From a virus: a stretch of DNA of 34,441 nt. Shown here piece by piece: positions 5,545-32,469 of the stretch. The stretch lies in the UHGV virus genome UHGV-0156988. One strand, 5' to 3'. The notes beneath the pieces were generated by a model. The model saw nothing but the letters and a program-made list of their open reading frames with translations. It made no database searches and was not told the origin of the DNA. The position numbers were made by a program, and so were the translations under genes. Position 1 is the stretch's first letter; each line of letters begins with the position of its first letter.

Positions 5545-5622
5545 TTACCGTTGAGGTAATAATTATGCGTATATGGTTTGATGTCAATAGATATGAGTTA
5601 AAAAAATTACCCGTTAGGTAAT
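5545..5622 (-). promoter_or_regulatory. Leftward early promoter bracketed by two TTACC-N5-GGTAA operator sites
   Basis: Sites at 5545-5559 and 5608-5622; on the minus strand TTGACA (5583-5588) and CATAAT (5562-5567) with 15-nt spacer lie between them. Confidence 0.5.
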
Positions 5623-5635
5623 CGAATAGGCAATA

Positions 5636-5660
5636 AAAAAGCCGCCATAAGGCGGCTTAC
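5636..5660 (-). terminator. Rho-independent terminator downstream of repressor-like gene
   Basis: GCCGCC-ATAA-GGCGGC hairpin flanked by A5 and T-rich tract; reads as hairpin plus TTTTTATT on minus strand. Confidence 0.6.
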
Positions 5661-5678
5661 TTACTGAAAAATATGGTT

Positions 5679-6263
5679 TTATTGTTTGTTTTTTTCGTTC
5701 TGGTTGATGACAAATTCAATGTAACTTTCGATCTTTGCTTTCTCGGTTTCGGGTAACAATGCGTAGCGCGAGCGGTCATAGTTGATGGTTGCAGGGTCGT
5801 GCGGGTGAATAAGTAATTCATAGCCGTGACGCCCGAATGCGGATGCCACATTCTCCAGGGTGGAAATGGAAACGCTAACCTCATTGTTTAACAGGCGGCT
5901 GATTGTCACCTGGGCGACGCCGGATGCGCGGTGTAGTTTTCCCTGCGTTGAAAGGTCGCGGCTTTCGCTCATCCAGCGTTCCAGGTTGTGAGCCGCCAGC
6001 TGACCTATATCGCTCGGGCCGACAGGCTGAAAACCTTCCTGAGAAAGCGAGCGATCGATATCAAGCCAGTTACGGGGTTTATTGGCGGCAGCTTCAATTT
6101 TTCGCGCAACCTGGTCGCCGATAACCTTCTTGCCAAGAGCCCAGCGGTTTACCAGATTTGCCTGAGTTCCAAGTTTTTCTGCCATCCGCGTCTGAACACC
6201 ATTGAATTCACGGTCGATCAAGTCGTTGAGATTTTGCCTGCGGACGTCTTGGATACTTTTCAT
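5679..6263 (-). CDS. Prophage repressor candidate with two HTH-like segments and no S24 peptidase domain
   Basis: 194 aa; HTH-like segments (TRMAEKLGTQANLVNRW and VAQVTISRLLNNEVSVSISTLENVASAFG); divergent from cro-like gene across an operator cluster; own terminator. Confidence 0.6.
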   Translation of the reverse strand: MKSIQDVRRQNLNDLIDREFNGVQTRMAEKLGTQANLVNRWALGKKVIGDQVARKIEAAANKPRNWLDIDRSLSQEGFQPVGPSDIGQLAAHNLERWMSESRDLSTQGKLHRASGVAQVTISRLLNNEVSVSISTLENVASAFGRHGYELLIHPHDPATINYDRSRYALLPETEKAKIESYIEFVINQNEKNKQ

Positions 6264-6318
6264 TTTCTGGAAAATCGCCTCATATATGAATCAGTAGATG
6301 ATTCAATTTAAAGCAATA

Positions 6319-6381
6319 TTACCCAACAGGTAAATGCACCCCATAGGTAACTATCCTTGATTTTTGTTACCTTATGGGTGA
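6319..6381. promoter_or_regulatory. Operator cluster between divergent repressor and cro-like genes (three sites)
   Basis: TTACC-CAACA-GGTAA 6319-6333 (perfect); GCACC-CCATA-GGTAA 6336-6350; TTACC-TTATG-GGTGA 6367-6381; AT-rich inverted repeat 6384-6405 before cro-like start. Confidence 0.55.
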
Positions 6382-6417
6382 ATATTTATTATCTGAAATA
6401 AATATCAGGCAATAGCT

Positions 6418-6648
6418 ATGAGCGATAACGAACATTTCGATTTCAAAAAGCACTGGCTTGCACTTACTCCGGATGAGCGTGAAGCCTTCGCACAGGAAGC
6501 CGGAACGACGAGTCACTATATCCAGACTCACTTAACAGGTAAGCGCAAAATGCCAGGTAAAGTATTGATGAATGGGCTTTTTAAAGCCTGTAAAACAAGA
6601 CAATGGCTGCGCTCAAAAGCAGAACTGGCATACTTCTTCTACTCATGA
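6418..6648 (+). CDS. Cro/CII-like small HTH regulator
   Basis: 76 aa, first rightward gene after operator cluster; HTH-like segment FAQEAGTTSHYIQTHLTGKR. Confidence 0.55.
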   Translation: MSDNEHFDFKKHWLALTPDEREAFAQEAGTTSHYIQTHLTGKRKMPGKVLMNGLFKACKTRQWLRSKAELAYFFYS

Positions 6649-6670
6649 TATCCAGCTACAACCCTCTGTA

Positions 6671-6692
6671 GACCGCCACCCGGCGGTCTTTT
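6671..6692 (+). terminator. Rho-independent terminator after cro-like gene (tR1-like position)
   Basis: GACCGCC-ACCC-GGCGGTC hairpin followed by TTTT. Confidence 0.6.
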
Positions 6693-6703
6693 CATATCTA
6701 TTC

Positions 6704-6718
6704 GTACCTCAAAGGTAA
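6704..6718. promoter_or_regulatory. Single operator-like site GTACC-N5-GGTAA
   Basis: One-mismatch copy of the TTACC-N5-GGTAA palindrome immediately after the terminator. Confidence 0.4.
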
Positions 6719-6798
6719 TAAAAAACCAAATCTGGTTGATCTTTTTTTTGTGTCAGCACAAAATAACCGTAATCCCAATACTAATAACAGGGCTTACC

Positions 6799-6999
6799 AT
6801 GGAAATCATTACACGTATTGATGCCGCAAAGCGCGGACTTAAACGCTACTACACCGGAAAACAATGTAAGCACGGACATGACAGTGAACGCTGGGTTTAC
6901 AACGGACACTGTGTTGAGTGCACCATGGAATCAAACCGTCGTATCAGGGCAGAGATTAAGCAGATCATGATTAATTCCTCCCCACAACATTCAAGCTGA
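6799..6999 (+). CDS. Hypothetical Cys/His-rich small protein
   Basis: 66 aa from MEIITRID; CKHGH...CVEC suggests zinc binding; sits between cro-like and replication genes (cII-like position). Confidence 0.45.
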   Translation: MEIITRIDAAKRGLKRYYTGKQCKHGHDSERWVYNGHCVECTMESNRRIRAEIKQIMINSSPQHSS

Positions 7000-7014
7000 T
7001 AGCGGAGATTAATC

Positions 7015-7830
7015 ATGAGCAGACATGCAACAGATTGGGCCTGGGAGACAGATCCAGGTAGCTCGTCATTAAAGCTCATACTGCTCTCGATGGCTGACAG
7101 AGCAGATGAATATAACCTCTGCTACCCCAGCATAGAACGCCTCGTTAAAGACACTTGCCTGAATAAAAAAACCGTGCAGGCCGGACTTATATCGCTCATG
7201 AAAATGGGGCTTATTTCAGATACCGGAGAGAGAAAGGGAGCGACGAAAAGAGTGCGGGTTTTCTCTCTTAATATAACCAAAAACGGGAACATTAAAGGCA
7301 ACCGGGAAGGGGGTAATGAACCCGAAAACGGTAATGTTACCGAAAACGGGAATATACCCAAAAACGGGATGTTGAATGATCCCAAAAACGGGATGTTGAA
7401 TGATCCCAAAAACGGGATCCAGAACCAGTCATATAACCAGTCATTTAACCAAGAGAGGGAGAGCAGGACAAAAACCGGGGATTCTGTGCCTCATGACCCC
7501 GGCGCAAACAACGCCGTGATGAATAACTTTGTTCCTCCTGGTGGGCCAGGGCAATTAGGCAAATTTGTCATGCATGAACAATGGCAGCCATCAGATGACT
7601 TTCTTCGGAAAAGCTCATTGCAGGGGATCTACCTGGACAGTCTGCCAACGGCACAGGAACTTGCAGAGTTCAGAATTTACTGGATGGCTGAGGGTAAGGC
7701 ATACCATCAGGCACAGTGGGAGCAGAAGCTGGCAAGGCGGCTGCAGATTAGCAGACAGAAGCAATCAACATTACCTGATAACAACGTTCCGCACTGGAAC
7801 AGCCCTGAAGCGTGGGAGGATTTCTTGTGA
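7015..7830 (+). CDS. Replication initiator protein, lambda O-like
   Basis: 271 aa; N-terminal HTH-like replication-protein region; internal iteron repeats; followed by overlapping P-like gene. Confidence 0.75.
   Translation: MSRHATDWAWETDPGSSSLKLILLSMADRADEYNLCYPSIERLVKDTCLNKKTVQAGLISLMKMGLISDTGERKGATKRVRVFSLNITKNGNIKGNREGGNEPENGNVTENGNIPKNGMLNDPKNGMLNDPKNGIQNQSYNQSFNQERESRTKTGDSVPHDPGANNAVMNNFVPPGGPGQLGKFVMHEQWQPSDDFLRKSSLQGIYLDSLPTAQELAEFRIYWMAEGKAYHQAQWEQKLARRLQISRQKQSTLPDNNVPHWNSPEAWEDFL
7277..7444 (+). repeat. Iteron-like direct repeats inside initiator gene (candidate origin of replication)
   Basis: Six copies of CC(C/G)(A)AAAACGG(G/T)A(A/T) beginning at 7277, 7322, 7340, 7357, 7381, 7405, then tandem AACCAGTCAT repeats at 7422-7444; encode the PKNG(M) repeats. 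Confidence 0.6.
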
Positions 7831-8612
7831 ACAACGTTTTTACCGCGATACAAAACCGTGACGGAGAAGCCCTTTCTCGCATGTCAGGTTATGAGCATCA
7901 GTACACCAACAATGATAACGTGGTGAACATGTCAGCAGAGAGGCTTGTTGATGCCCTTTTCAAACAGCTGAAACAACTGTTTCCGGCGGCAGTGGTAACC
8001 AACCTGAAGACGCCAGAGCAGGAAGTTGCTGCAAAACAGCAGTGGATTGCTGCGTTTGCCGAAGGGGGGATCCGAACCCGTGAACAGGTTTCTGCTGGTA
8101 TGCGCCACGCCCGCGCCAGTGAATCTCCGTTCTGGCCGTCGCCTGGGCAATTCATCAAGTGGTGTAAAGACAGCAAGATGGTTCTTGGCGTCACCATTGA
8201 CGATGTGATGGCGGAGTTTAACCGGTACAGCAAGGAAAAAAGTTTATATCCTGGTGGTCCCGAAAGATTCCCGTGGCGACATCCGGTTATGTACTGGGTC
8301 GTATGTGATACCCGCCGTGCAATGTATCAGCGCCAGCTTAGCGAGATTGAGGTTGAGAAACACGCGCGCAGGCTGCTCGATGATTGGGCGAAAAAGGTGG
8401 CTTCCGGACAGCAGATACCCGATCCGGTGATCAGCATACAGGCAAAGCCAGAACCCATGAGTACACCTCCGGACACAGGGAGAGACGTTTACCATCCACC
8501 AGGGCGAAGTTTCGGGTGCATGCCTAACGCCGCCACCCTTGGTGGAATAACACCGGCGCAGTGGCTGATGGAGGAATACAGGCGAGGAAAGGCGGCAGGA
8601 TTTATCAAGTAA
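7827..8612 (+). CDS. Replication protein P-like helicase loader
   Basis: Colinear with lambda P as recalled (FPA...QWIAAF...GMR.AR...PF.PSPGQF..WC); GTG 7827 with SD GGGAGGA, overlapping O-like stop; ORF-track start 7812 rejected. Confidence 0.8.
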   Translation: MNNVFTAIQNRDGEALSRMSGYEHQYTNNDNVVNMSAERLVDALFKQLKQLFPAAVVTNLKTPEQEVAAKQQWIAAFAEGGIRTREQVSAGMRHARASESPFWPSPGQFIKWCKDSKMVLGVTIDDVMAEFNRYSKEKSLYPGGPERFPWRHPVMYWVVCDTRRAMYQRQLSEIEVEKHARRLLDDWAKKVASGQQIPDPVISIQAKPEPMSTPPDTGRDVYHPPGRSFGCMPNAATLGGITPAQWLMEEYRRGKAAGFIK

Positions 8613-8617
8613 TACCA

Positions 8618-8637
8618 GCGCGATAGCGCATTTTTTT
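8618..8637 (+). terminator. Weak terminator-like hairpin after P-like gene
   Basis: GCGC-GATA-GCGC followed by T7; stem only 4 bp. Confidence 0.35.
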
Positions 8638-8649
8638 ACGCCTCGACAA

Positions 8650-8726
8650 TTACCTGTTAGGTAATAAAATATTCTAAAATCTATTGATTTCGTGTCTTAT
8701 GTGGTTTTTAATTACCTCAGAGGTAA
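8650..8726 (+). promoter_or_regulatory. Promoter region bracketed by two perfect TTACC-N5-GGTAA sites
   Basis: Sites 8650-8664 and 8712-8726, centres 62 bp apart; TTGATT at 8684-8689 between them; downstream site overlaps the RBS of the 8730 gene. Confidence 0.5.
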
Positions 8727-8729
8727 ATC

Positions 8730-9074
8730 ATGAGAAAACAGATACAGGCTCTTGGTCGACTCAAAACAGATCAGATGAACAAAACAGAATCTGCGTATTG
8801 CCAGCACCTTGAGCTGCGTAAACGTGCAGGAGAAATCGTCTGGTATCGATTTGAGGGTATCAAGCTGCGGTTAGCTGATAACACGTTCTATACGCCCGAT
8901 TTCGCTGTGATGCTCGCCACCGGCGAGATGGAACTACACGAAGTGAAAGGTTTCTGGACCGACGACGCCAGGGTGAAAACCAAAGTCGCCGCAGATCAGT
9001 ATCCGTTCCGAATCATCGGGGTAACGGTTAAACCAAAGAAAGCAGGTGGTGGCTGGAACATCGAAGAGTTCTGA
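8730..9074 (+). CDS. VRR-NUC/DUF1064-like nuclease-fold protein
   Basis: 114 aa; YTPDF...EVKG pattern resembling VRR-NUC-type folds (recalled, not searched). Confidence 0.5.
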   Translation: MRKQIQALGRLKTDQMNKTESAYCQHLELRKRAGEIVWYRFEGIKLRLADNTFYTPDFAVMLATGEMELHEVKGFWTDDARVKTKVAADQYPFRIIGVTVKPKKAGGGWNIEEF

Positions 9075-9135
9075 ATCGACGATCTTTTTAGTTATCAATG
9101 TAATCAATAAGTTATGTGGATAAGCGAGGGTAAAG

Positions 9136-9735
9136 ATGGAAAGTAATATCAAAGGGTTAGTTGCCGCCGGGCATGAGATGGCTTCGGAACTGAAAGCAGA
9201 ATGTGGTGCCGTTGATATGCGCAGTGTGGCAAAGATGATCAGCGATTTGGCAACGCAACTGGAAGTGCAACTGGTGCGTGCTAATGCGCTGGCCGAAGAC
9301 CAGCAGAAAACGATTGAGTCAATTAAGCAGGCTGATGCGGCTGTTAAGTTGGCACACGAGAAGTTTTCGGCGCTGGCGGCGGAGAATGCGGGGCTGAAGG
9401 CTGGAATACTGCAGGCATCAGAAGATATGGAAGCACACCATGATGACTATGCCCTATTCAGCTATGACGCTGACGGCGAGCAAATGGACGCGCTATTACG
9501 GCTTTGTGACGCTCAGGATTCAATAGCATCGCTGGAGGATGTCAAAACCCCAGCCACCGACGCCTTCCTGGCTGAAGTGCGGGCGCAGGGCGTGGAGATG
9601 TTTGAACAGTGGTGTAGAGGTGAGCGCGATTTTACTCTCATTGATGAGGATGTTGCTGATGCAGCGGCTTATGAAGAATGCGTAAAAAGAGCTGAATATT
9701 TCGCCGCCCAGCTTCGCAAAGGAGGCAACCAGTGA
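9136..9735 (+). CDS. Hypothetical protein
   Basis: 199-aa acidic ORF with SD GAGGGTAAAG; no recognised motif. Confidence 0.5.
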   Translation: MESNIKGLVAAGHEMASELKAECGAVDMRSVAKMISDLATQLEVQLVRANALAEDQQKTIESIKQADAAVKLAHEKFSALAAENAGLKAGILQASEDMEAHHDDYALFSYDADGEQMDALLRLCDAQDSIASLEDVKTPATDAFLAEVRAQGVEMFEQWCRGERDFTLIDEDVADAAAYEECVKRAEYFAAQLRKGGNQ

Positions 9736-10031
9736 GTGTATGTCTTATTGATAAACGCCGACGTGGGCAACAAATACCATCTGTTGGAATGCCGAATCAC
9801 ACATGGTTTTGCGTACTTGATATCGATGGTATGGATGCGTTGATTGACACTCGTCATTACTGCGATACCGCAACAGCTACTCCGACGAAAGCAAAGAAAA
9901 TGGCTGCTCTGATAGAAAACTGGACTCCACCTGATGGTTGGTGCAATGGGAATGATCGAGATTGGCATGAAAAAATGAAGGGCTATATCTGCGATTTCTT
10001 ACGTAAATGCAACGGCTTCAGGGTGATGTGA
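9732..10031 (+). CDS. Hypothetical Cys-rich protein
   Basis: 99 aa; GTG start overlapping previous stop. Confidence 0.4.
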   Translation: MSVCLIDKRRRGQQIPSVGMPNHTWFCVLDIDGMDALIDTRHYCDTATATPTKAKKMAALIENWTPPDGWCNGNDRDWHEKMKGYICDFLRKCNGFRVM

Positions 10032-10032
10032 T

Positions 10033-10767
10033 ATGACCAAAATTAACTATCAGGCACTGCGTGAAAAGGCAGAGAAAGCAACGTGTGGTGTGTGGTCGCT
10101 CGAATATGGAGAGGAGAGATTTGATGGTGATGATGCACTAATTCATCGCGAGGCTGCTGGATATATTCCCATTTGCAGAATTGAAGGAGCGCATCCTGAA
10201 AGCGGTTTCGATGAAGATTTCCAAATGGAACAGCAGGCCAATGCTGAATTCATCGCCGCAGCCAGTCCAGCTACCGTGCTGGCACTGCTGGATGAACGGG
10301 AAAGAAACCAGCAATACATAAAACGCCGCGATCAGGAGAACGAGGATATTGCGCTTACGGTTGGGAAGCTGCGCGTTGAGCTGGAAGGCAAAGACAGCAA
10401 AATAGCCAATCTTACCGCCGAACGCGATGCTCTTCGTGAAGGTGAGATGGGCGACGCTAGGCATAGCAACACACGGGCCGCAGCTGATATCTACTTCCAA
10501 CTGGTCGAGGAGTGCGAAATTCCTGCTGGCGGATCTCTGGTCGAGTACGTTGACGATATGCGCGAGAAGCTGGAAGCCGCAGAGAAGCGCATAGCAGAGC
10601 TGGAGTTGCGGGAGGTTGTGCTTCCGCAATGCTATAGCATGTTGCATCGCGTCGATTTTGACGAGCCTTACCACACTGAAATGGTTTACAGGCAGCATCA
10701 GGTTCTTGAGGCACTGCACAACGCTGGAATAAACGTCACCGAATCAGGTAAAGGAGAGGCATCATGA
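10033..10767 (+). CDS. Ea22-like prophage protein
   Basis: 244 aa; QQANAEFIAAASPATVLALLDE and coiled-coil segment resemble Ea22-like family as recalled. Confidence 0.5.
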   Translation: MTKINYQALREKAEKATCGVWSLEYGEERFDGDDALIHREAAGYIPICRIEGAHPESGFDEDFQMEQQANAEFIAAASPATVLALLDERERNQQYIKRRDQENEDIALTVGKLRVELEGKDSKIANLTAERDALREGEMGDARHSNTRAAADIYFQLVEECEIPAGGSLVEYVDDMREKLEAAEKRIAELELREVVLPQCYSMLHRVDFDEPYHTEMVYRQHQVLEALHNAGINVTESGKGEAS

Positions 10768-11765
10768 GCACTATCACAAGAGAATGGCTGCAGCAGGCTA
10801 TCAACGATTATGAAAGCGTTCGTGATGAGCTTCCTTTCGGGCTTGATGATTACCAGGGGAATATCCTGGCTGCCCTGCGTATCGCACTGGCATCGCTGGA
10901 ATCAGAGCCGGTGGCGTGGTTGCTGTCAGGAGGCGGGGCAAAAAACAACGTCAGCTTCGATAGTGGCAATGCTTATGCCGACCCGCTGCGAGAAGTAACG
11001 CCGCTTTACACCGCCCCGCCAGCGCCGGTATCTGTGCCCGCTGCGATGGAAATTGATGATGACTTTGACAGCGCGTTTGAACACGGAAAAGCTGTCGGCT
11101 GGAACGCCTATCGCGCCGCCATGCTTCAGGCCGAACCTGTAAGTAATAGTGATGAGTTACCGCTGGACTATCTGCAAGGACACAAAGACGGCCTGGAGTG
11201 GGCTGCACAACAGGCAGAGGCCAATCATCCGCAAACAGGTGACTGGTTGTACGATGACCCAATCGAGCTTGCCAGGGCGATTCGCAAAGGTCCGGATATT
11301 CCTGAATTTAAGTCAGTATCTGTTGATGAGGATGATAACTTCTACTCGTGGTTTGGCAGGTTCTGGTATGAAAATTATCAGAAAAATAATTACACAACAT
11401 CTGCAAAACAGATGCTTGGTACGATGGCTGAATTTGCCTATAGGGCAGGTAGAGAGTCGGCAGCGCTGGCTGGCAACTCTCCGGTAATTCCGGATGGTTG
11501 GATAAGCTGTAGTGAGCTAATGCCAGATGATGGTCAGCACGTAATTATTTTATGTGATGGCGCATTCGTTCTTTATGCGCAATATCGAGACGGAGAGTTT
11601 TTCGATATTGTCCGCAATGGTGATGAATTTTTCGAAACACAGAGTCGCAATGTAACCCACTGGATGCCGCTACCAGAACCGCCGCAGGGGGTGAAGTCAG
11701 CGTTTGAACATGGAATGCAGCGTTACGCCGGTGCTATGCAAAAACTGTCTGAAGGTGATAAGTGA
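10764..11765 (+). CDS. DUF551-domain prophage protein
   Basis: 333 aa; C-terminal W..C.E..P..G..V....DG region resembles DUF551 as recalled. Confidence 0.5.
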   Translation: MSTITREWLQQAINDYESVRDELPFGLDDYQGNILAALRIALASLESEPVAWLLSGGGAKNNVSFDSGNAYADPLREVTPLYTAPPAPVSVPAAMEIDDDFDSAFEHGKAVGWNAYRAAMLQAEPVSNSDELPLDYLQGHKDGLEWAAQQAEANHPQTGDWLYDDPIELARAIRKGPDIPEFKSVSVDEDDNFYSWFGRFWYENYQKNNYTTSAKQMLGTMAEFAYRAGRESAALAGNSPVIPDGWISCSELMPDDGQHVIILCDGAFVLYAQYRDGEFFDIVRNGDEFFETQSRNVTHWMPLPEPPQGVKSAFEHGMQRYAGAMQKLSEGDK

Positions 11766-11921
11766 TGGATTATCTCTTACTTTTCTACTCTGGAGGCGTC
11801 TTAGGCTGCATGCCTTTTCACTGGCAACTTCGTCGCAACGAGAAGGTCATGTATCGAGTCATAAATACCGTCATCTGCTCCGCCATCTGGCCGATATTGC
11901 AAACTCCCAAGGTGAATATCA

Positions 11922-12260
11922 ATGGCTAAATCCGCAGCAGAACGCAAAGCCGCTCAGAGAGCAAGACAAGCTGCATCTGGTGTGCGTAAGCTGGAAATTG
12001 TGCTTGATGCTCAGGAAATTGAAATGCTGGAGCGTAACTGTGCCACTCGTCGCCCCGGGCGTGCACCTTACGAATTTGGTGAGTATATAGCGTTACTGAT
12101 CCGCCAGGATGATGCACGTGTGCGCGGGCGTATAAAATCGATCAGCAGAAAACGTTGCGGTAAGTGCGGCGAGAGAGTTCCAGTTAATTCATGCCCGTGT
12201 AATGGTGACTCGCAATGCTGGGTGACTAAAGGCTGGCATGAAACGAAATTAATAGTGTGA
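11922..12260 (+). CDS. Hypothetical DNA-binding protein, RHH-like N-terminus plus Cys4 zinc ribbon
   Basis: 112 aa; basic helical N-terminus (AERKAAQRARQAASGVRKLEIVLD) and C-terminal CGKCG...CPC cluster; SD AAGGTGAAT; stop lies inside TGTGACATGTCACG motif. Confidence 0.5.
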   Translation: MAKSAAERKAAQRARQAASGVRKLEIVLDAQEIEMLERNCATRRPGRAPYEFGEYIALLIRQDDARVRGRIKSISRKRCGKCGERVPVNSCPCNGDSQCWVTKGWHETKLIV

Positions 12261-12309
12261 CATGTCACGAGTAGATTATGCATGATGAATTTGACGGGTT
12301 TTGAATACT

Positions 12310-12335
12310 GCCGCCAACTATGGCGGCTTTATTTT
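12310..12335 (+). terminator. Rho-independent terminator upstream of terminase operon
   Basis: GCCGCCA-ACTA-TGGCGGC hairpin followed by TTTATTTT. Confidence 0.6.
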
Positions 12336-12346
12336 GCATGGTACTA

Positions 12347-12379
12347 TTACCACAACGGTAACTATTACCACGGTGGTTA
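12347..12379 (+). promoter_or_regulatory. Two adjacent operator sites immediately upstream of terS
   Basis: TTACC-ACAAC-GGTAA 12347-12361 (perfect) and TTACC-ACGGT-GGTTA 12365-12379; second site overlaps terS start codon. Confidence 0.5.
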
Positions 12380-12975
12380 TGATGTCTGCTGAACCTAAAA
12401 CCTATAAACGCAAATCAACGCAATTTAAGCCACTAACAGCAATGCAGGAGGCTTATTGCCTGTCATACATCAAAACGCCTGAAAACCAGACTCAGGCAGC
12501 GATTAACGCAGGATTCTCCCCAAATACAGCGGCAGTTAAAGCCAGTGTCATGATGCGTGATGAACGCATTAAAAAACGGATTGCCGAGTTGATGGAGGAG
12601 CGCAACAAACGAATGCGCGTCAGTGCTGATTACGTTCTCATGCGCCTGGTGGAGATCGACCAGATGGACGTGATTGATATCCTCAACGACGATGGGAGTC
12701 TTAAGCCAATCCGCGAGTGGCCGAAAATATGGCGCACTACGCTTAGCGGCTTTGATCTGTCATCGACCATCATGAACATGAACGAGGATTCGATAGAGAC
12801 AATCCTCAAAAAAATTAAATGGCCTGACAAGGTGAAGAACCTCGAACTGATTGGCAAGCACGTCGATGTCAATGCATTCAAAGAACGCCTGGATGTTAAT
12901 GTGAATGTGACAATTGCTGATCGCATAGCGGCAGCCAGGAAGCGACTCAAAGAACGTCAGGATGGTAATCAGTGA
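12379..12975 (+). CDS. Terminase small subunit
   Basis: About 199 aa; immediately upstream of and overlapping terminase large subunit; start moved from ORF-track 12301 because a terminator and operators lie in that extension. Confidence 0.7.
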   Translation: MMSAEPKTYKRKSTQFKPLTAMQEAYCLSYIKTPENQTQAAINAGFSPNTAAVKASVMMRDERIKKRIAELMEERNKRMRVSADYVLMRLVEIDQMDVIDILNDDGSLKPIREWPKIWRTTLSGFDLSSTIMNMNEDSIETILKKIKWPDKVKNLELIGKHVDVNAFKERLDVNVNVTIADRIAAARKRLKERQDGNQ

Positions 12976-14447: not shown

Positions 14448-14497
14448 TCCGTTAGCGGGGATAATGACGGAGACATCCTCTGGTGAGGATAAAACAA

Positions 14498-14517
14498 AGC
14501 CAGCTCATCGGCTGGCT
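14498..14517. terminator. Bidirectional terminator hairpin between convergent terL and 14538-14909 gene
   Basis: AGCCAGC-TCATCG-GCTGGCT hairpin; T-rich on minus strand; immediately followed by TGTGACATGTCACG at 14521-14534. Confidence 0.5.
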
Positions 14518-14537
14518 GTTTGTGACATGTCACGGTG

Positions 14538-14909: not shown

Positions 14910-14925
14910 AGTCTAATCTCACCTT

Positions 14926-14949
14926 AAAAAAATGCCCGGCGAACCGGGC
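14926..14949 (-). terminator. Rho-independent terminator between tRNA and 14538-14909 gene
   Basis: On minus strand GCCCGG-TTCG-CCGGGC followed by T7, which runs directly into the SD of the downstream gene. Confidence 0.5.
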
Positions 14950-15112: not shown

Positions 15113-15189
15113 TGGCGTGGCATGCAGGATTCGAACCTGCGACCAACCGCTTAGAAGGCGGTTGCTCTGTCCAACTGAGCTAATGCCAC
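15113..15189 (-). tRNA. tRNA-Arg, anticodon UCU
   Basis: 77-nt cloverleaf folded by hand: acceptor GTGGCAT/ATGCCAC, D-arm GCTC/GAGC, anticodon stem ACCGC/GCGGT with loop CTTCTAA, T-arm GCAGG-TTCGAAT-CCTGC, discriminator G, encoded CCA. Confidence 0.88.
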
Positions 15190-15511: not shown

Positions 15512-15526
15512 TTACCTGAAAGGTAA
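15512..15526 (+). promoter_or_regulatory. Operator site upstream of virion operon
   Basis: Perfect TTACC-TGAAA-GGTAA about 90 nt upstream of the first virion gene. Confidence 0.45.
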
Positions 15527-15616
15527 TAATTCGTGCGTTAAATGTCAACTGCCTACGATAAATAAATCATATGTGGTTAAATTGGTAATAATTTAATTGC
15601 GTACGGAGTCATTGAT

Positions 15617-19560: not shown

Positions 19561-19998
19561 ATGATCACCGACAAACTGTTGATGTTCTCCGAAGCACAGG
19601 CGGTAACTGATACCGCGGCTTCTACTGACGTAATCGATCTAGGTCCAATTGATGGAAATCGTCGCGATATCGGCGTGGGTTACCCGCTTGAGTTTTGGGC
19701 GCTGGTTAACGAAGCCGCCACGGCAAGTGGTGAGGCAACTGTAAACATCCAGTTGCAGACGAGTGAGAATAACAGCTCATGGTCCACTATTTATGATAGT
19801 GGCGCACTGGCAAAGGCTACCCTGACAGCAGGTAAACGAGTTGTTTCTGCAAAGGTGCCTGCCGGTGTTCAGCGATATCTGCGTGTTAACTACTCCGTCG
19901 CAACTGGCCCACTAACGGCCGGCAAATTCACTGCGGGTATTAGTCTGGATGTTGATGCCAATACACCGTACCCGATCCGCTCAAAAGTAACTGGTTAA
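19561..19998 (+). CDS. Hypothetical virion protein (possible capsid decoration protein)
   Basis: 145 aa, Thr/Ala/Gly-rich, directly after capsid gene with SD GGAGAAAG. Confidence 0.45.
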   Translation: MITDKLLMFSEAQAVTDTAASTDVIDLGPIDGNRRDIGVGYPLEFWALVNEAATASGEATVNIQLQTSENNSSWSTIYDSGALAKATLTAGKRVVSAKVPAGVQRYLRVNYSVATGPLTAGKFTAGISLDVDANTPYPIRSKVTG

Positions 19999-20394: not shown

Positions 20395-20718
20395 ATGGAA
20401 CTCGTAAACCTCAAAACCGGCACTGACAGCTACCAGGATGAGAGCGGAGAAACCAGAACTCGCGATGAATACCCGTGGGGGCTGTGCATCACTCTTAATA
20501 ACGACACATTGAATAAGCTGAAGGCGCAACCTCAGGGCGTCGGAACAGAAGTGATGATAACTGCAAAGGCTGTTATTCGAGGCCTGTCTGCCAGAGAAAC
20601 TGACGATGGTGTTAATCGCAGCGCCGATCTGCAGATCACTGATATGGCGATCGCTCCTGTTTCCGGGGATGTAGAAAAATCAGCGGCTGAAACTCTGTAC
20701 GGTAACGGAGGTGAGTGA
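20395..20718 (+). CDS. Hypothetical protein
   Basis: 107 aa; SD AGGAG 5 nt upstream of ATG 20395. Confidence 0.45.
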   Translation: MELVNLKTGTDSYQDESGETRTRDEYPWGLCITLNNDTLNKLKAQPQGVGTEVMITAKAVIRGLSARETDDGVNRSADLQITDMAIAPVSGDVEKSAAETLYGNGGE

Positions 20719-23794: not shown

Positions 23795-24258
23795 TGATCG
23801 ATGTTCGAATTATTCCCGCTACCGAAGAGCATCTTCAGATGATTTTGCCGGATGTTCGTCAGGCTGATATTGACGAACTGTATGCGGTATCACTGATGAC
23901 TACCGAAGATGCGCTGCGTGTTGGTCTGCGTACTGCGACTATGGCCTGGTCAGGGTTCGCGAACGGAGAACTGGTAACCATGTTTGGCGTATCTCCGGCG
24001 TCAATGATCGGTGGCAATGGTACGCCCTGGCTGGTCGGAACCAGCCGTATTGAAAAATATCAGAAGACATTTCTGCGCCACTGCCGCCCTGTATTGCAGC
24101 AGATGCTGGCAGTTTATCCGCACCTGGAAAACTACGTCGACGAGCGAAACCATGTTGCCAAAGCATGGCTGCACTGGCTTGGATTCAGGCTTGAAGAAGC
24201 CGCGCCTTATGGTGCTCTTGGTCTTAATTTCCACAGATTTCACATGGAGAGAAAATAA
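23794..24258 (+). CDS. Internal virion protein candidate (gp13-like position)
   Basis: 154 aa; TGATG overlap with upstream gene. Confidence 0.4.
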   Translation: MIDVRIIPATEEHLQMILPDVRQADIDELYAVSLMTTEDALRVGLRTATMAWSGFANGELVTMFGVSPASMIGGNGTPWLVGTSRIEKYQKTFLRHCRPVLQQMLAVYPHLENYVDERNHVAKAWLHWLGFRLEEAAPYGALGLNFHRFHMERK

Positions 24259-24803
24259 TGTGCGATCCGGTTATTGCTGGTGGCGCAATGCTCGCCATGA
24301 GTGGCATTCAGGCATACACCCAGTACCAACAGGGAAAGTATGCCTCGAAGGTTGCAGAAGCGAACGCAGATATAGCCACTGCTCAGGCAAATGATGCAAT
24401 AAACAGAGGTAACGCTGAAGCTGAGCAACGGCGCAGAGAGCTCCGACAGCGGCTTGGTACACAGGCGGCGACAATGGGGGCGACCGGCGCTGATTTATCT
24501 ACCGGTAACGCGCTGGATATATTTGGCGACACTGCCCAGTTTGGCGCCCTTGATTCGCTGACGACGGTGAATAACGCGCAACGCGAGGCTTACGGTTATC
24601 AGGTTCAGGCTGCCAATTATAAAGCAGAAGCCAGTTCAGCCCGTAAACAGGGGAATGTGGGAGCAGCAACAACATTGCTCACTGCTCCTCTGAAGGCATA
24701 CGGTGCGTACCAGATGTTTGGTGGGACGTGGAGTCCGTTTACTCAAAGCACTCCTGCGCCAATCGGGGCAGCAGCAGGAACCAGATTACCCGGAGGATTA
24801 TAA
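24258..24803 (+). CDS. Internal virion protein B, T7 gp14-like
   Basis: 181 aa; N-terminus MCDPVIAGGAMLAMSGIQA resembles T7 gp14 N-terminus as recalled. Confidence 0.55.
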   Translation: MCDPVIAGGAMLAMSGIQAYTQYQQGKYASKVAEANADIATAQANDAINRGNAEAEQRRRELRQRLGTQAATMGATGADLSTGNALDIFGDTAQFGALDSLTTVNNAQREAYGYQVQAANYKAEASSARKQGNVGAATTLLTAPLKAYGAYQMFGGTWSPFTQSTPAPIGAAAGTRLPGGL

Positions 24804-27316: not shown

Positions 27317-29115
27317 GTTACTTTGGCCTTAATCCAGTAAACCAGAATCAGCAGCTTGACGAAGCAGCATCAAATCCAGCTGGCTTTAACAGCGATGTTG
27401 GTTTTTTCGACAATGCTGTAGGAGCGGCATTGTCTGGTTTGTACTCCGGGCTGGTGGCAAAGCCAGATCAGTTGCTATGGGCAGGGATGGATAAAATCGT
27501 ATCCCCGATTGCTCAGTTTGTTAACGAAAACACCTCGCTCAATGACACTTCAGTTTCATACATTGCTGAGCAGAGAAAACTAGCAGAGCAGCAGGTTAAG
27601 CGGCTGACGCCTGATGCCGCGACAACCGGAACCGCCGGGCAGGTCCTTTATGGGTTGTTCGATATGGGCGGGCAGGCTGTTGTTGGTACAACGCTCGGTG
27701 GTCCGGTCGGAGGTGCTGCGGCGGTAACTTCGCTACAGGGTTTTTCTGAGTTTGAACGGCTGACAGCACAGGGTGTTGATTTCAGGACGGCGCAGGAAGC
27801 GGGATTAGTGCAGGGTATTACTGCTGGTGCCGGAACACTGATCCCTATGAGCCTCGGGTTACGTGCTGGTGGTGCGCTGGCGGAAGGTGTGGCGGCTCAG
27901 CTTGCGCGGACGGGTGAAAGTTCAGTGCGACGCGCCGCAGCAACAGCAGTACGTGCAACGCCAGATATTGCCTATGCCGCAGGTACAAATATTGCGTTCG
28001 GTATGGCACAGCGTGGGCTTACTGCAAAAACGCTTCGTGATGGTGGCTATAGCGAAATGGCTAATCAGTATGATGTGTTGGATCGACAGGCAATTGCTAT
28101 TGATGCTGTTCTTGGAGTGGCGTTTGGTGGTGTCGGCAGATTTATTAACTCTCGCGGCGAGTCTACAAGCGCACCAAATTTTTCACCAGTTGATGTCGAT
28201 GCTGCACTGGCGGCGAATGCCGCTCATCATGCTGAAATTGATATTGCTCCCGGTGTGCCGATCAACGTGCTTTCGCGTAATTCGCACATTCAGGCTCTGC
28301 GAAAAGCCATGTCTGATGTTAGCCAGGGGATACCTGTAGACGTTGCCAGCATTGTTGAGTCTGCATCTTTCAGTGAAATTCCTGGGCGCAAGAGTCTGCT
28401 TTCTCAGGCAGTTAATGAGGCTCTGTCATCTGTAGATGATGGAGTAACGGCGCGCGCTATAGAAAATCGGTTGCTTGAAGAACAGGCCGCGCAGCTTTTG
28501 CCGCGTGGCGATAGACAGGTTTACCAGTCTGAAATCGCTAATAGCCAACGAATTATTGAAAATCTCACTGAACAGCGCGCACAAATTCTTGCAGAAGAGC
28601 CAACCGGTAGCGGTAAAGCTTTGTCTCGTGCTCGATCAGATAAACAGGCCAGACTTCGCGATATTGATCAACGAATCCGGCAGGCACAAGAACGCCTGGA
28701 GTTTTCCCGTAACGCGTTGGCACCGCACGAGCCTGGCGGTCAGTTTTTTGAAGCTCGAGCAGAACTGGCACGACGACAGCAGGCAGAAAGTGAACTTAAT
28801 GCTCAGGCTGTTTCATTCTATAAAACAGCAGAGGTCAGGACGCCAGACGAAGTAGCTCCTTTTGAGCCCGGTAAGATATTGCAACAGACAGAACAAAAAA
28901 TGATGGCAGATCCGGCAGGAGATATTGATCTGCGTATAGCTGAAGACTCGCTGCTTGAATCTCCGGACATGATAATCACCGTGCTGGATGATGATGGTAA
29001 TCCACAATCGCGCAGTGCGCGTGAAGTACTGGATGAAGCGAACAGGGAAAGTGAGCAGGCAATACAGGATTCCAGCCTGTTTGATGTTGCTGTGGCGTGT
29101 TTCTTGAGAGGTTAA
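27313..29115 (+). CDS. Internal virion / ejection protein (possible N-terminal part of a split gp16 analogue)
   Basis: 600 aa; ATGA overlap with upstream gene; Ala/Gly-rich N-terminal half. Confidence 0.5.
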   Translation: MSYFGLNPVNQNQQLDEAASNPAGFNSDVGFFDNAVGAALSGLYSGLVAKPDQLLWAGMDKIVSPIAQFVNENTSLNDTSVSYIAEQRKLAEQQVKRLTPDAATTGTAGQVLYGLFDMGGQAVVGTTLGGPVGGAAAVTSLQGFSEFERLTAQGVDFRTAQEAGLVQGITAGAGTLIPMSLGLRAGGALAEGVAAQLARTGESSVRRAAATAVRATPDIAYAAGTNIAFGMAQRGLTAKTLRDGGYSEMANQYDVLDRQAIAIDAVLGVAFGGVGRFINSRGESTSAPNFSPVDVDAALAANAAHHAEIDIAPGVPINVLSRNSHIQALRKAMSDVSQGIPVDVASIVESASFSEIPGRKSLLSQAVNEALSSVDDGVTARAIENRLLEEQAAQLLPRGDRQVYQSEIANSQRIIENLTEQRAQILAEEPTGSGKALSRARSDKQARLRDIDQRIRQAQERLEFSRNALAPHEPGGQFFEARAELARRQQAESELNAQAVSFYKTAEVRTPDEVAPFEPGKILQQTEQKMMADPAGDIDLRIAEDSLLESPDMIITVLDDDGNPQSRSAREVLDEANRESEQAIQDSSLFDVAVACFLRG

Positions 29116-29120
29116 ATTAA

Positions 29121-31595
29121 ATGAGACAGGAATGTATACAAGCGGTCCAGCAGGCGGCGCAGCGCACGTTAACGGCGCGAGAAATACAGAACATTGAAGA
29201 CCGCATTTATCGAAATATGCGCTCCATTGCTCGTGATGACCCGATGTCGTGGCGACAACTTTCCGAATCAGAACGGTTGTATCGTGCAGCACAATTGGCA
29301 TCTGAAGAATTACAGCGAGAAGCGGCATTAAAGAAACGTCGTGTGGCCCTCACTATAGCCGCACGTCAGAGATTGGATAAATTTATCAATAGCTATCAAG
29401 GGGCTGATGGGAAACTTGGCGCTCTTAACCGTACTATTGCTTTTAATGCAGACGGTAAATCGAATTTCCTCTCTGTTGAATCCAGAACAAAAGCCACCCG
29501 TGATTATGCATTGAGTCAATTGCAGGAGGCATTCGAAGCAGTTGATCCTCGCTTTTTTGGTCTGTTTGAAGATGAAGCGGGCGTACGTGACCTGGTATAT
29601 GAAATGCGGGGGCAAAATACTGGCAATGCTAAAGCAAGAAAAGGTGCTAAGGCGTGGAGAGAAGTTACAGAGCTGCTGCGCCGCCGGTTTAATGATGCTG
29701 GTGGGGACATTGGCTATCTCGAAAACTGGGGGATCCCTCAACATCATTCTATGGAAAAGGTTGGGGCGGTATCAAAAGATAAATGGGTTAGCGATGTTAT
29801 AGGTAAGCTGGATCGCAAATATTATACCCGAGCCGATGGACAACTGATGAACGATGCCGAGTTGTCTGCATTTCTTGGAGAGGCTTATAACACGATCGCT
29901 ACTGGTGGGCTGAATAAGCTTACTGATACCGGAATGCGAATTTCCGGCGCACGTGCTAACCGTGGTAATGCATCACGACAGATACATTTCAAAGATGCAG
30001 ATTCCTATCTGCAATATCAGCAACTTTATGGCGATCGCTCTCTATGGGAAATCATGGTCGGTCACCTTGAAGGTATCAGTAAAGATATTGCACTGGTGGA
30101 AACATATGGCCCAAACCCCGATCATGTTTTCCGCTCTCTTCTTGATCAGGTGAAGGCAGAAACGGCAACAGCTAACCCGAGTAAAACCGGTAAAGTCGAG
30201 CGGCTGGCGAACAACACAGAGAATCTGTACAACTTTATTTCCGGAAAGACACAGCCTGTAGCGAATCCGCACATCGCGCGATGGTCTGACAATATCCGCA
30301 ACTGGCTGGTTGCCAGCAGACTCGGATCCGCGTTGCTGTCATCGTTCTCTGATCTTGGAACCATGTATCTGTCTGCGAAGGTTACCAACCTTCCAATGAA
30401 CCAGTTATTCCGCAACCAGCTTGAAGCTATGGACCCAACGAACCGTACAGAACTTGCGCGGGCGCGCCGCGCTGGTCTGGCGATGGAATCTCTACTTGGC
30501 AGCGTTAACCGCTGGGCGATGGATAATATGGGGCCGTCTGTGTCTCGTTGGGCTGCAACGGCGGTAATGCGTGCCAGTGGGCTTACAGCATGGTCAGATG
30601 CGCACAAGCGCGCCTATGGCGTAACCATGATGGGAAGCCTGGGAGAAGTAGTGTCACGGACACCAGACCTTCGTAGCCTCGATGATTCTGATTTTCGTAT
30701 CCTGAAAAGCAAAGGGATTACTGACACAGACTGGAGCGTATGGAAGCTGGCGCAACAGGAGGACTGGGGGAACGGCAATAATACGATGCTGACACCGGAA
30801 AGCATTATGCGTATCCCTGATTCAGCAGTTAAACATCTTGGTGAGCCTGAACGCGTGAAATTTGAGGCAATGCGTAAACTGCTCGGTGCCGTAACTGAAG
30901 AAGTTGATATGGCTGTTATTACACCGGGAGCACGTGAGCAACTGATAACCGGTTCTGGTATTCAGCGTGGAACATGGAAAGGTGAATTAACGAGAAGTGT
31001 TTTCCTGTTTAAATCGTTCCCTATCTCGGTGGTTATGCGTCACTGGTCACGCGCTATGGGTATGCCGTCTGCTGGTGGGCGTGCGGCATATATTGCGACG
31101 TTTATTGCCAGTACGACCATTCTTGGCGCTTTGTCGCAGCAACTTAACGACCTTGCGTCTGGTCGTAATCCTCGCGAGATGACAGGAGAAGATGCTGCTA
31201 AATTTTGGCTTGGTGCTCTACTGAAAGGTGGTGGTCTTGGCCTTTACGGTGACTTTTTATTGTCAGATCACACTAGGTACGGAAGCGGCGCGCTGGCGTC
31301 GATGCTTGGCCCGGTAGCTGGTCTGGTTGATGACGTAGTGAAGATTGCTCAGGGCATACCGTTAAATGCTGTGGAAGGGAAGAGTGAGCAGACTGGTGGT
31401 GATCTGGTGAAGCTGGGGAAAGGTTTGATGCCAGGTGCGAATCTCTGGTACTTAAAGGCGGCTCTCGATCATATGATCTTTAACCAGATGCAGGAGTATT
31501 TTTCACCAGGCTATTTGCGTAAAATGGAGCAACGTTCGAAGAAAGAGTTTAACCAGACATACTGGTGGCGACCTCAGGATGTCACTCCGCAATAA
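29121..31595 (+). CDS. Internal virion / ejection protein (possible C-terminal part of a split gp16 analogue)
   Basis: 824 aa; last large gene before tailspike. Confidence 0.5.
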   Translation: MRQECIQAVQQAAQRTLTAREIQNIEDRIYRNMRSIARDDPMSWRQLSESERLYRAAQLASEELQREAALKKRRVALTIAARQRLDKFINSYQGADGKLGALNRTIAFNADGKSNFLSVESRTKATRDYALSQLQEAFEAVDPRFFGLFEDEAGVRDLVYEMRGQNTGNAKARKGAKAWREVTELLRRRFNDAGGDIGYLENWGIPQHHSMEKVGAVSKDKWVSDVIGKLDRKYYTRADGQLMNDAELSAFLGEAYNTIATGGLNKLTDTGMRISGARANRGNASRQIHFKDADSYLQYQQLYGDRSLWEIMVGHLEGISKDIALVETYGPNPDHVFRSLLDQVKAETATANPSKTGKVERLANNTENLYNFISGKTQPVANPHIARWSDNIRNWLVASRLGSALLSSFSDLGTMYLSAKVTNLPMNQLFRNQLEAMDPTNRTELARARRAGLAMESLLGSVNRWAMDNMGPSVSRWAATAVMRASGLTAWSDAHKRAYGVTMMGSLGEVVSRTPDLRSLDDSDFRILKSKGITDTDWSVWKLAQQEDWGNGNNTMLTPESIMRIPDSAVKHLGEPERVKFEAMRKLLGAVTEEVDMAVITPGAREQLITGSGIQRGTWKGELTRSVFLFKSFPISVVMRHWSRAMGMPSAGGRAAYIATFIASTTILGALSQQLNDLASGRNPREMTGEDAAKFWLGALLKGGGLGLYGDFLLSDHTRYGSGALASMLGPVAGLVDDVVKIAQGIPLNAVEGKSEQTGGDLVKLGKGLMPGANLWYLKAALDHMIFNQMQEYFSPGYLRKMEQRSKKEFNQTYWWRPQDVTPQ

Positions 31596-31604
31596 GGAAG
31601 TGTT

Positions 31605-31781
31605 GTGTTTTTAATTATTTTGAGTGTGATAATTTCTGGTGGGTTGTTATTTATTGACCGCTACAAATATTTTCTTAACCCTCAGACTCAAGCTATTTGC
31701 TGGTTCATCTTTGTTGTGCAGGGAATAGTTCTTGTTGCAAGCCTTATTGAGGGGAGGCCTCTGATTTTTACTGGGTAAATA
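31605..31781 (+). CDS. Small hydrophobic peptide, two predicted TM segments
   Basis: Not in ORF track; GTG 31605 (or 31626) after AGGAAG; about 58 aa, almost entirely hydrophobic. Confidence 0.25.
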
Positions 31782-31790
31782 GGTGACTAC

Positions 31791-32087
31791 ATGCAAGCTA
31801 TAGGATTCATTGTTTATATCGTCGTTGGTCTTTTTCAGTTGGCAGCAATTATGGCTGGGCTTGAATCATGGTGGGGATTGCACTGGATAATTGCAGCCCC
31901 CATTGCTTTCATCGTGAGCTATATTCCATTTGTTGGAGCGATTGTTGGTATGGTTGGCGCTGTGGATGTATGGCGGTGGGAGTGGTGGCAGGCTGGCCTT
32001 CTCTTCTTTGGTGGGATCATCTTTGCTATTGTCTGCGGTGGAATGTCATCATTTTTCGAATGGCTATCATTCAGAAAAAGAGCGTGA
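31791..32087 (+). CDS. Small integral membrane protein, three predicted TM segments
   Basis: 98 aa, SD AGGTGA; Gly/Ile/Val/Trp-rich hydrophobic stretches with basic C-terminus FRKRA. Confidence 0.6.
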   Translation: MQAIGFIVYIVVGLFQLAAIMAGLESWWGLHWIIAAPIAFIVSYIPFVGAIVGMVGAVDVWRWEWWQAGLLFFGGIIFAIVCGGMSSFFEWLSFRKRA

Positions 32088-32095
32088 CATGTCAC

Positions 32096-32113
32096 AGGCC
32101 GCTCTTGCGGCCT
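32096..32113. terminator. Bidirectional terminator hairpin between convergent genes
   Basis: AGGCCGC-TCTT-GCGGCCT; TTTAAATTT on plus side, CTCTTTTTCT on minus side; abuts GTGACATGTCAC at 32084-32095. Confidence 0.55.
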
Positions 32114-32119
32114 TTAAAT

Positions 32120-32377
32120 TTACCGGGTTTGTTTTCGTAATTGTTCGGCACAATAGTCGAGATGTGTTTGCAGATCCCGCATAGACATCTGTGAGCTGGT
32201 GACGTAGTTAATCAGTGCAGTCAGTTCGGCAAGTGGGCCATCGACATTAAATCCATCCTTATCGAGATCCCGGAGTAATTTCATCAAGTGCGATCCTTCC
32301 ACCAGTGACCTGACGCCTCCCGGCGTGTGAATCCTTTCGGTAAATCCGTCTTCCAGTGGATAGTGATACTGCTGCAT
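32120..32377 (-). CDS. LexA-controlled small acidic protein, candidate antirepressor
   Basis: 85 aa from MQQYHY with SD GGAGAAG; LexA box at 32398-32417 overlaps a TGtATAAAT extended -10; own terminator. Confidence 0.5.
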   Translation of the reverse strand: MQQYHYPLEDGFTERIHTPGGVRSLVEGSHLMKLLRDLDKDGFNVDGPLAELTALINYVTSSQMSMRDLQTHLDYCAEQLRKQTR

Positions 32378-32397
32378 CTTAATCTTCTCCATGCAAT

Positions 32398-32417
32398 AAC
32401 TGTATATTTATACAGTA
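32398..32417 (-). promoter_or_regulatory. LexA (SOS) box
   Basis: Plus-strand AACTGTATATTTATACAGTA: CTGT-N8-ACAG with AT-rich spacer, one or two mismatches from TACTGTATATATATACAGTA. Confidence 0.7.
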
Positions 32418-32454
32418 GCAAATAATTTGTTTGCTATCCAGCACGTTTTGCAAA

Positions 32455-32469
32455 TTACCAGAAAGGTAA
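32455..32469 (+). promoter_or_regulatory. Operator site upstream of tailspike gene
   Basis: Perfect TTACC-AGAAA-GGTAA between the LexA-controlled gene and the tailspike gene. Confidence 0.45.

Follow-up and report, generated by a model that had tools for sequence, protein, structure and literature searches.

The viral genome UHGV-0156988, a stretch of 34,441 nucleotides analysed here as a whole (the window), carries repeated copies of a 15-bp palindrome, TTACC-N5-GGTAA, which are discussed below as probable operators of the phage repressor Rep. The window is a Uetakevirus (ε15/phiV10-like) podophage genome and a prophage. Across the immunity and replication region it shares approximately 98% identity with PAS61, phiv142-3 and phiV10, and it is an E. 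coli phiV10-type phage. The gene order starts with int (50-1306), the leftward recombination operon, rep (5679-6263, minus strand) and a cro-like gene (6418-6648), and continues with the replication genes, an accessory operon from 8730, terS/terL, a leftward tRNA-Arg, the virion operon, ant (minus strand) and the tailspike gene. DNA methyltransferases are also encoded by the phage. Transcription units are split by terminators, each of which is followed by its own operator-bearing promoter, as at terS. Open reading frame extension artefacts were corrected, placing the ATG of terS at 12379/12382 and that of the tailspike gene at 32576, and with these curated gene starts the non-coding share of the window is 5.4%. 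Seven relatives were compared (phiV10, ε15, TL-2011b, Tyrion, SPC32H, BUCT711 and PAS61), the hosts of which are E. coli, Salmonella, Enterobacter and Klebsiella. No Q- or N-type antiterminator is annotated in phiV10, ε15, PAS61, Tyrion or SPC32H.

Perfect copies of the palindrome start at 5545, 5607, 6319, 8650, 8712, 12347, 15512 and 32455. A previous sequence-only reading of this DNA had reported all eight, with the second misplaced by one base at 5608. Its near-copies, with one mismatch at 6367, 6704 and 12365 and two mismatches at 6336, were confirmed by a mismatch scan and by the relatives, in which they align with perfect or near-perfect sites (6336 with ε15 33358, 6367 with ε15 33388 and 12365 with ε15 30); by these alignments, the degenerate copies are genuine sites. 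The analytic expectation for perfect sites is approximately 0.03, as had been estimated, and the mean in a motif scan of 100 dinucleotide-preserving shuffles was 0.00. The eight perfect sites together with 6336, 6367 and 6704 lie wholly within the non-coding 5.4%, and 12365 just touches the terS start codon, in agreement with the claim that no copy lies inside a long gene; the sites fall into seven intergenic regions rather than the six promoter regions counted before. Altogether, 12-13 operators are distributed across 7-8 regions of the window. The symmetrised consensus of 58 distinct sites is A-TTACC-wwWww-GGTAA-T, with A/T at the central position in 98%, and the half-site centres are 10 bp apart. 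A reading of the palindrome as an RNA hairpin or terminator was rejected, because a stem of 5 bp whose loop varies is too weak and because the palindromes lie on promoters. As a separate observation, the lone half-site GGTAAT occurs 36 times in the window against 11.5 expected, and approximately 18 copies outside the operator regions are left in coding DNA, which is a mild excess.

Promoter hexamers were read from the sequence or taken from a sigma-70 scan, and the function of the promoters is inferred. At the leftward early promoter (PL), the promoter scan gives the core TTGACA-17-AATTAT at 5559-5587 (minus strand), the -35 of which, CTATTGAC, is invariant in seven genomes. The proximal operator (5545-5559) abuts the -10 and covers +1, and the distal operator (5607-5621) lies 62 bp from it. 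Between the divergent rep and cro-like genes, the proposed triple resembling the rightward operators (OR) of lambda was recovered. Its site nearest rep (6319-6333) is a perfect copy adjoining the presumed rep promoter; the middle site (6336-6350), 17 bp from 6319, has two mismatches and is perfect in ε15, SPC32H and BUCT711; the third (6367-6381) fills the spacer of the rightward early promoter (PR), which has its -35 TTGATT at 6357-6362. Upstream of the gp40/replication operon, a one-mismatch operator (6704-6718) stands after a terminator (6670-6689) and is followed by the box CCAAATCTGG (6726-6735) and then by the promoter candidate TTGATC-17-CAAAAT. In the DUF1064/8730 operon, the promoter TTGATT-17-TTTAAT (8684-8712, plus strand), in which the -35 TATTGA and the -10 are conserved in seven genomes, lies between a distal operator (8650-8664) and a proximal operator (8712-8726) that starts at the last base of the -10, covers +1 and holds the Shine-Dalgarno sequence GAGG. 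A second candidate around operator 8650, TCGACA-16-TAAAAT (score 10/12), was dropped because its -35 is not conserved. The operator pairs 5545/5607 and 8650/8712 thus bracket the promoters of the leftward and 8730 operons as had been described, with a spacing of exactly 62 bp in both instead of 62-63 bp, and this spacing is kept at both pairs in all eight genomes, save one of 63 bp (BUCT711).

At its very start, the window contains the partial one-mismatch site TTACCTTAAAGGTAT (1-7; right half AAGGTAT), which is conserved upstream of int and cut by the window start. In the relatives this site is found approximately 57 bp upstream of int (phiV10 26870; others 26882, 28568 and 26960). The ε15 record annotates an integrase-binding site over the same position, and the role of TTACCTTAAAGGTAT is therefore uncertain.

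Among the late units, only terS has sites directly on a core promoter. The extended -10 promoter of terS-terL, TGgTACTAT (12339-12347, plus strand), comes directly after a terminator (12310-12327); one operator lies at +1 (12347-12361) and a second, with one mismatch, lies over the ribosome-binding site and ATG (12365-12379). The next operator (15512-15526) is located where the tRNA-Arg unit and the portal operon diverge. According to the alignment, the leftward promoter TTGACA-17-TACCTT (15520-15548, minus strand) has its -10 inside this operator, and the form TTGAC(A/C)-17-TACCYT is kept in the five distinct sequence types of the seven-genome alignment. The likely product of the leftward unit is a tRNA-Arg(UCU) (15113-15189, minus strand) with a strong terminator (15069-15034, minus strand), and the tRNA gene is found at the same place in five of the seven relatives, being absent from ε15 and Tyrion. 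In phiV10 it is present but unannotated, and a coding sequence, 'p04', is annotated across it on the opposite strand. In the rightward direction, operator 15512 lies approximately 60-80 bp upstream of the likely portal start. A 56-bp block (15553-15608, plus strand) with one variable base in seven genomes carries the box TCATATGTGG, a lone GGTAAT and a -10-like TAATAA; it is near-invariant from E. coli to Klebsiella phages, across four host genera, while its flanks diverge, and it is presumed to be the late promoter and leader of the portal operon. The lone GGTAAT half-site of the portal promoter is 62 bp from operator 15512, and the corresponding distance in the tailspike promoter is 50 bp.

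The last operator (32455-32469) is flanked by the presumed ant promoter (TGGATA-17-TACTGT) and the tailspike promoter without touching either; its position would be approximately -57 from ant and -68 from the tailspike gene. The late-promoter box of the tailspike gene, GCATATATGGTT-N5-GGTAATAGAAT (32498-32525, plus strand; ATG at 32576), is conserved in seven genomes. The sigma-70 scan found no convincing rightward core promoter over operators 15512, 32455 and 6704, and candidates read by eye with the operator as spacer (e.g., TTGCAA-16-TATCTA at 32448) were rejected because they are not conserved in the relatives. The proposal that the regulator contacts late operons directly is retained for terS, the sites of which are on the core promoter, and weakened for 15512 and 32455, which overlap no late core promoter and are better described as operators in divergent control regions.

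The palindrome is conserved across the genus. Each relative carries 8-11 perfect copies, and alignments place them at positions matching those of the window: the leftward operon, the rep/cro intergenic region, the DUF1064/resolvase operon, the portal operon, the ant/tailspike region and terS. The relatives also carry a site before the lysis operon and a one-mismatch site before int. The motif density in coding regions of relatives had been named beforehand as a test; in six relatives with hand-checked annotation (all but PAS61), not one of the 57 perfect sites is inside a genuine long gene, and the only coding overlaps there are with an over-extended terS start (phiV10) and a dubious small open reading frame (Tyrion). 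The test therefore does not refute the reading. The motif is kept at matching positions though the identity of Rep falls to 42-45%. In a selection test on 235 distinct alleles of the 12 sites from approximately 87 related loci, variable allele cells made up 0.8% in the half-sites, 7.7% in the flanks and 19.5% in the N5 spacer. The ten specified bases are strongly constrained, and the spacer is without constraint. The loci were reused from a covariation test with IMG/VR, in which at least 324 viral contigs encode Rep; that test was useless, as the best 80 loci carry 100% identical Rep.

The same sites have a history in the ε15 record (NC_004775 / AY150271), in which the motif ATTACC-N5-GGTAAT occurs at positions matching those of the window. 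Seven features of the RefSeq entry are annotated as 'protein_bind, repressor, lysogeny', and all of them consist of this motif. Six of the seven match sites of the window: 12-27 corresponds to 12347, 2931-2947 to 15512, 19895-19911 to 32455, 32554-32570 to 5545, 32616-32632 to 5607 and 35906-35922 to 8650; the seventh is 32479-32494. The three OR sites, the second site at terS, the site before the lysis operon and, in the right-hand pair, the proximal site have no feature in the record. ε15 further differs from the window in having a third PL site and no tRNA-Arg, and its Rep is 42% identical. A literature text search found the motif string in no open-access paper, and the ZX5 paper refers to operators in a general way only.

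Rep, a repressor of 194 amino acids, matches PDB 5D50_A over residues 1-190 (E=4e-42) and also, with its C-terminal part, 5D4Z (E=4e-20). From these similarities it is predicted to consist of an N-terminal helix-turn-helix (HTH) DNA-binding domain (DBD), a middle dimerisation domain and a C-terminal domain for tetramerisation and Ant binding. Peptidase_S24 is absent from Rep, HTH families being its only domain matches. The putative recognition helix ANLVNRW (our own assignment) is invariant across Uetakeviruses. The antirepressor Ant, a protein of 90 amino acids encoded at 32120-32392 (minus strand), matches PDB 5D50_E (E=1.6e-46); its gene is divergent from the tailspike gene, in the position of SPC32H_020. 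Upstream of ant, a perfect LexA box, CTGTATATTTATACAG (CTGT-N8-ACAG; 32400-32415), overlaps the presumed ant -10 (TACTGT) and is kept in seven of seven relatives. As far as sequence can tell, the LexA box and ant are the induction arm of the switch, which the sequence-only reading had left unmentioned. These components are those of the Rep-Ant switch of SPC32H (PDB 5D50, 5D4Z), with which the window shares a full-length Rep and Ant, the LexA box, the lack of S24 and the same palindrome in the same places. Kim and Ryu are said to have described in 2013 a Rep without RecA cleavage and an ant gene under LexA control.

The palindrome can also be followed beyond the genus. A word-indexed protein search with the 72-amino-acid DBD as query returned ten near-identical fragments and nothing else. 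Distant homologs of the Rep-type DBD, with 36-47% identity to a DBD query of that type, are fused to Peptidase_S24 in unrelated phages, the hosts of which include Pseudomonas and Moraxella. Related half-sites adjoin the genes for these domains: TTACC-N4-GGTAA in the Pseudomonas phage PseuP_224 (three perfect copies and one with one mismatch, at 10906, 10932, 11768 and 11807), TAACC-N4-GGTAA in JBD68, TAACC-N5-GGTTA in Turba and Presto, TTACC-N5-GATAA in Mcat9 and TTAGT-N5-ACTAA in Acinetobacter MD-2021a. Peptidase_S24 is present in the PseuP_224 and Mcat9 repressors, which have the same DBD. A tblastn search for gp39, the product of the cro-like gene, found homologs in the Uetakevirus controls and in none of these DBD-sharing phages; pairwise BLASTP gave a weak partial match in Mcat9. 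The half-site family therefore goes with the Rep-type DBD, whether or not gp39 or the C-terminus of Rep is present. In PseuP_224, the four sites lie around cI only and a Q gene is present; because the sites are confined to cI, the spread of the operator to most operons would be specific to Uetakevirus. The series of DBDs and half-sites may be used to work out the recognition code.

Taken together, the palindromes are very probably operators of the phage's own repressor Rep, placed at nearly every transcription unit. This assignment is supported by the enrichment, conservation and selection of the sites, the ε15 annotation, the homology of Rep and Ant, the LexA box, the invariant helix, the association with the DBD, the literature and the 62-bp spacing, and it bears out in outline the claim of a single phage-encoded regulator with sites in the control regions of early, accessory, packaging, virion and tailspike genes. 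In mechanistic terms, each Rep N-terminal HTH domain would read one TTACC half-site, and the two half-sites would be on the same helix face because their centres are 10 bp apart. The SPC32H Rep is described in a secondary source as a tetramer on palindromic sites, with paired DBDs contributed by different dimers, and the tetrameric Ant is described there as disrupting Rep. The dimeric binder of the sequence-only reading accordingly has to give way to a protein that, by homology, is reportedly tetrameric on DNA and is inactivated by a LexA-controlled antirepressor instead of self-cleavage. Because SPC32H Rep is tetrameric, Rep may be able to hold two operators at once, and one tetramer on both operators would fit the 62-bp pairs (approximately six helical turns) as well as the 17-18-bp pairs at OR and terS. 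Rep would exclude RNA polymerase at PL, PR, the 8730 operon, terS and the tRNA-Arg promoter, since the operator overlaps -10/+1 or fills the spacer there. In the lysogen, most units would be shut directly by Rep and not via an antitermination cascade. On induction, DNA damage would lead to LexA cleavage and derepression of ant, and Ant would strip Rep from all operators together. We infer Rep binding, looping and the repression of the portal and tailspike genes from approximately 60-80 bp upstream.

Several points weigh against this assignment. The 'repressor' features of the ε15 record could be predictions only. A single Rep tetramer is sufficient for repression according to the secondary source, so that looping across 62 bp is neither required nor excluded. 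The protein gp39 exceeds Rep in conservation and could be a reader of these sites. No recognisable core promoter is overlapped by the operator at the portal, tailspike and relatives' lysis units, and direct repression at these units is the weakest step of the argument; direct late control has good support at terS, and at the other three late units it is plausible but indirect.

The strongest competitor gives the sites to gp39 as the main or an additional reader, which would turn early promoters off and putatively help late ones from approximately 70 bp upstream, as an early-off/late-on switch. The protein, 76 amino acids long, HTH-like and encoded at the cro position (6418-6648, plus strand), matches phrog_35 'transcriptional repressor' (E=5.7e-13); its motif AGTTSHYIQTHLTG is invariant, and with 58-84% identity across the genus gp39 is better conserved than Rep. 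It is a putative second reader of these sites. The systematic difference in operator position, overlapping the core at early promoters and lying at approximately -57 to -79 at late ones, would suit such a switch, and lambda Cro and CI provide a precedent for a shared set of operators. The Uetakeviruses cannot separate Rep from gp39 as reader, because all of them share the motif, the ANLVNRW helix and the invariant gp39 motif alike. The unrelated phages speak for Rep: related half-sites stand beside Rep-type DBD genes without a gp39 homolog detectable by tblastn, with the weak partial match in Mcat9 as the exception, and the ε15 record gives the sites to the repressor. Gp39 as the main or an additional reader is considered doubtful, though this reading deserves some credence.

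A second conserved box bears on how the late promoters might be driven. Four copies of TATRTGGTT are present in the window, where 0.35 would be expected, and all of them are close to an operator. The late leaders share a unit without a -35, consisting of (C/T)CATATrTGG-TT, 5 nt, and then GGTAATAA, GGTAATAGAAT or GTGTATAAT (portal, tailspike and relatives' lysis, respectively); expressed differently, CCATATATGG(TT) is followed after 9 nt by TAATAA, TAATAG or TATAAT, and the lysis version is found at phiV10 24738-24762. CCATATATGG is palindromic in itself. Measured between centres, related boxes at 5567-5576 (PL), 6726-6735 and 8695-8704 (8730-operon promoter) are 19.5 bp away from an operator. 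Conservation of the TATATGGTT copy at PL (5570) fails in ε15, SPC32H and BUCT711, which makes the box weaker there. The box is without annotation in the ε15 RefSeq record. Two-layer control can be proposed tentatively on this basis: Rep tetramers would bridge the 62-bp pairs, including a degenerate half-operator in the portal promoter, and a second regulator would act at CCATATATGG. Centred at approximately -26.5, the box would stand in for the -35 at the portal, tailspike and lysis promoters, and the second regulator would act with or against Rep in ordering early and late expression. No description of such control was found in feature tables or accessible papers, a body of literature from which the primary Rep and genome papers are excepted.

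Candidates for the second regulator are the cro-like gp39 and a Cys-rich protein of 112 amino acids encoded before terS (11922-12260, plus strand). The latter is gp49-like and assigned to PHROG 536 'transcriptional regulator'; its N-terminus is basic and helical, and its C-terminus is rich in Cys (CxxC...CxC...C). It has no match in Pfam, NCBIfam or PDB, and its 726 homologs are all 'hypothetical'; its AlphaFold model is poor (pLDDT, the predicted local distance difference test, of 57). Encoded where lambda has Q, this protein is a candidate late regulator. Across the stop codon of its gene, at 12257-12268, there is a perfect 12-bp palindrome, GTGACATGTCAC, which is identical in ε15 and TL-2011b and located near the end of the linear ε15 and Tyrion records; it could be a packaging-related or regulatory site.

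An unlikely alternative holds that operators 15512 and 32455 act on the divergent leftward promoters alone, those of the tRNA-Arg unit and of ant, with the portal and tailspike genes run by the late box and an activator. The overlap of the leftward promoter with 15512 in five sequence types, with tRNA-Arg downstream in six of eight genomes, fits this arrangement, as do the late leaders with their shared CCATATATGG(TT) and -10-like hexamer without a -35, where no rightward core promoter lies over the operator. Yet the lysis operon of the relatives has the same order of operator and then box without a divergent gene needing the operator, and 32455 is off the ant core promoter too. Moreover, terS is a late function under direct operator control, and the portal promoter has its lone GGTAAT exactly 62 bp from the operator. 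It is highly improbable that the palindrome is the target of a host factor or of a DNA-modification, recombination or packaging enzyme (e.g., a bipartite methylase site), although the phage encodes DNA methyltransferases and bipartite N5-spaced sites resemble type I target sites, since the sites occur in promoter regions only, with 95% of the genome free of them, are placed precisely on -10/+1 elements and belong to a motif that travels with the repressor DBD across phages of unrelated hosts, and we know of no host regulator with this site.

With Rep as the preferred reader, the circuit can be compared with known systems. Three operators between divergent repressor and cro-like genes and operators at the leftward early promoter recall lambda CI and Cro. 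In contrast to lambda, Rep of the window has no RecA-dependent self-cleavage domain, no N or Q is annotated in the relatives, and the operators of Uetakeviruses are also found at the replication, accessory, packaging, tRNA, virion/tailspike and lysis units. The cI of PseuP_224, a distant relative in its DBD, has the classical arrangement with sites at the leftward operators (OL) and OR only, plus Q. One repressor acting at many dispersed operators, including those of late functions, is known from P1 C1 and from gp71 of mycobacteriophages L5/L1 with its 'stoperators'. The window resembles P1 C1 and L5 gp71 in its many genome-wide operators under one repressor (12-13 sites here), whereas the sites of those systems are asymmetric, with stoperators lying in transcribed DNA in a single orientation, and their proteins unrelated; the sites of the window are symmetric, promoter-confined and arranged in phased pairs.

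A further relationship concerns the fold of the repressor. The pLS20 Rco/p53-type TetDloop repressors (PMC9986798) combine a DBD with a C-terminal tetramerisation domain, and SPC32H Rep reportedly shares this fold; secondary descriptions of SPC32H Rep list a DBD, then a dimerisation domain in the middle and a tetramerisation domain of the looping type. A 2023 paper states that the structural mechanism by which SPC32H Rep represses genes 'has not been extensively characterized'. The window differs from pLS20 in that its operator pairs are merely 62 bp apart and looping by Rep is putative.

The operator set is a rediscovery of the ε15/SPC32H-type Rep operators and is already known. Since the ε15 annotation already includes the set and the structure of the Rep-Ant pair has been characterised, the set poses no new question in itself. 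The circuit had been called unusual for a phage with lambda-like early genes, which is right in that no Q/N antiterminator is annotated but does not make it new, as the ε15 record already annotates repressor sites. ε15/phiV10-type prophages, which are very common in E. coli, are wired unlike lambda, with one antirepressor-sensitive repressor that would sit directly on most units, including DNA packaging and a tRNA gene. This would be useful for prophage annotation, for predicting expression upon SOS induction and for engineering phiV10-type reporter phages. Experiments may still be worthwhile on the strictly phased operator pairs and on the second box of the late promoters.

Two further repeats were noticed. 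phiV10 has an extra perfect operator at 20497, absent from this window, which is the loop between the arms of a perfect 12-bp inverted repeat, GAGTGCTTATAT...ATATAAGCACTC (20485-20523), located past the end of ant and ahead of a Bro-N gene. The dnaT-like replication gene of the window contains three adjoining tandem-repeat arrays (7312-7451) composed of 18-bp units repeated three times and containing GGTAAT, perfect 24-bp units repeated 2.6 times and 12-bp units repeated 2.4 times, and these arrays resemble origin iterons.

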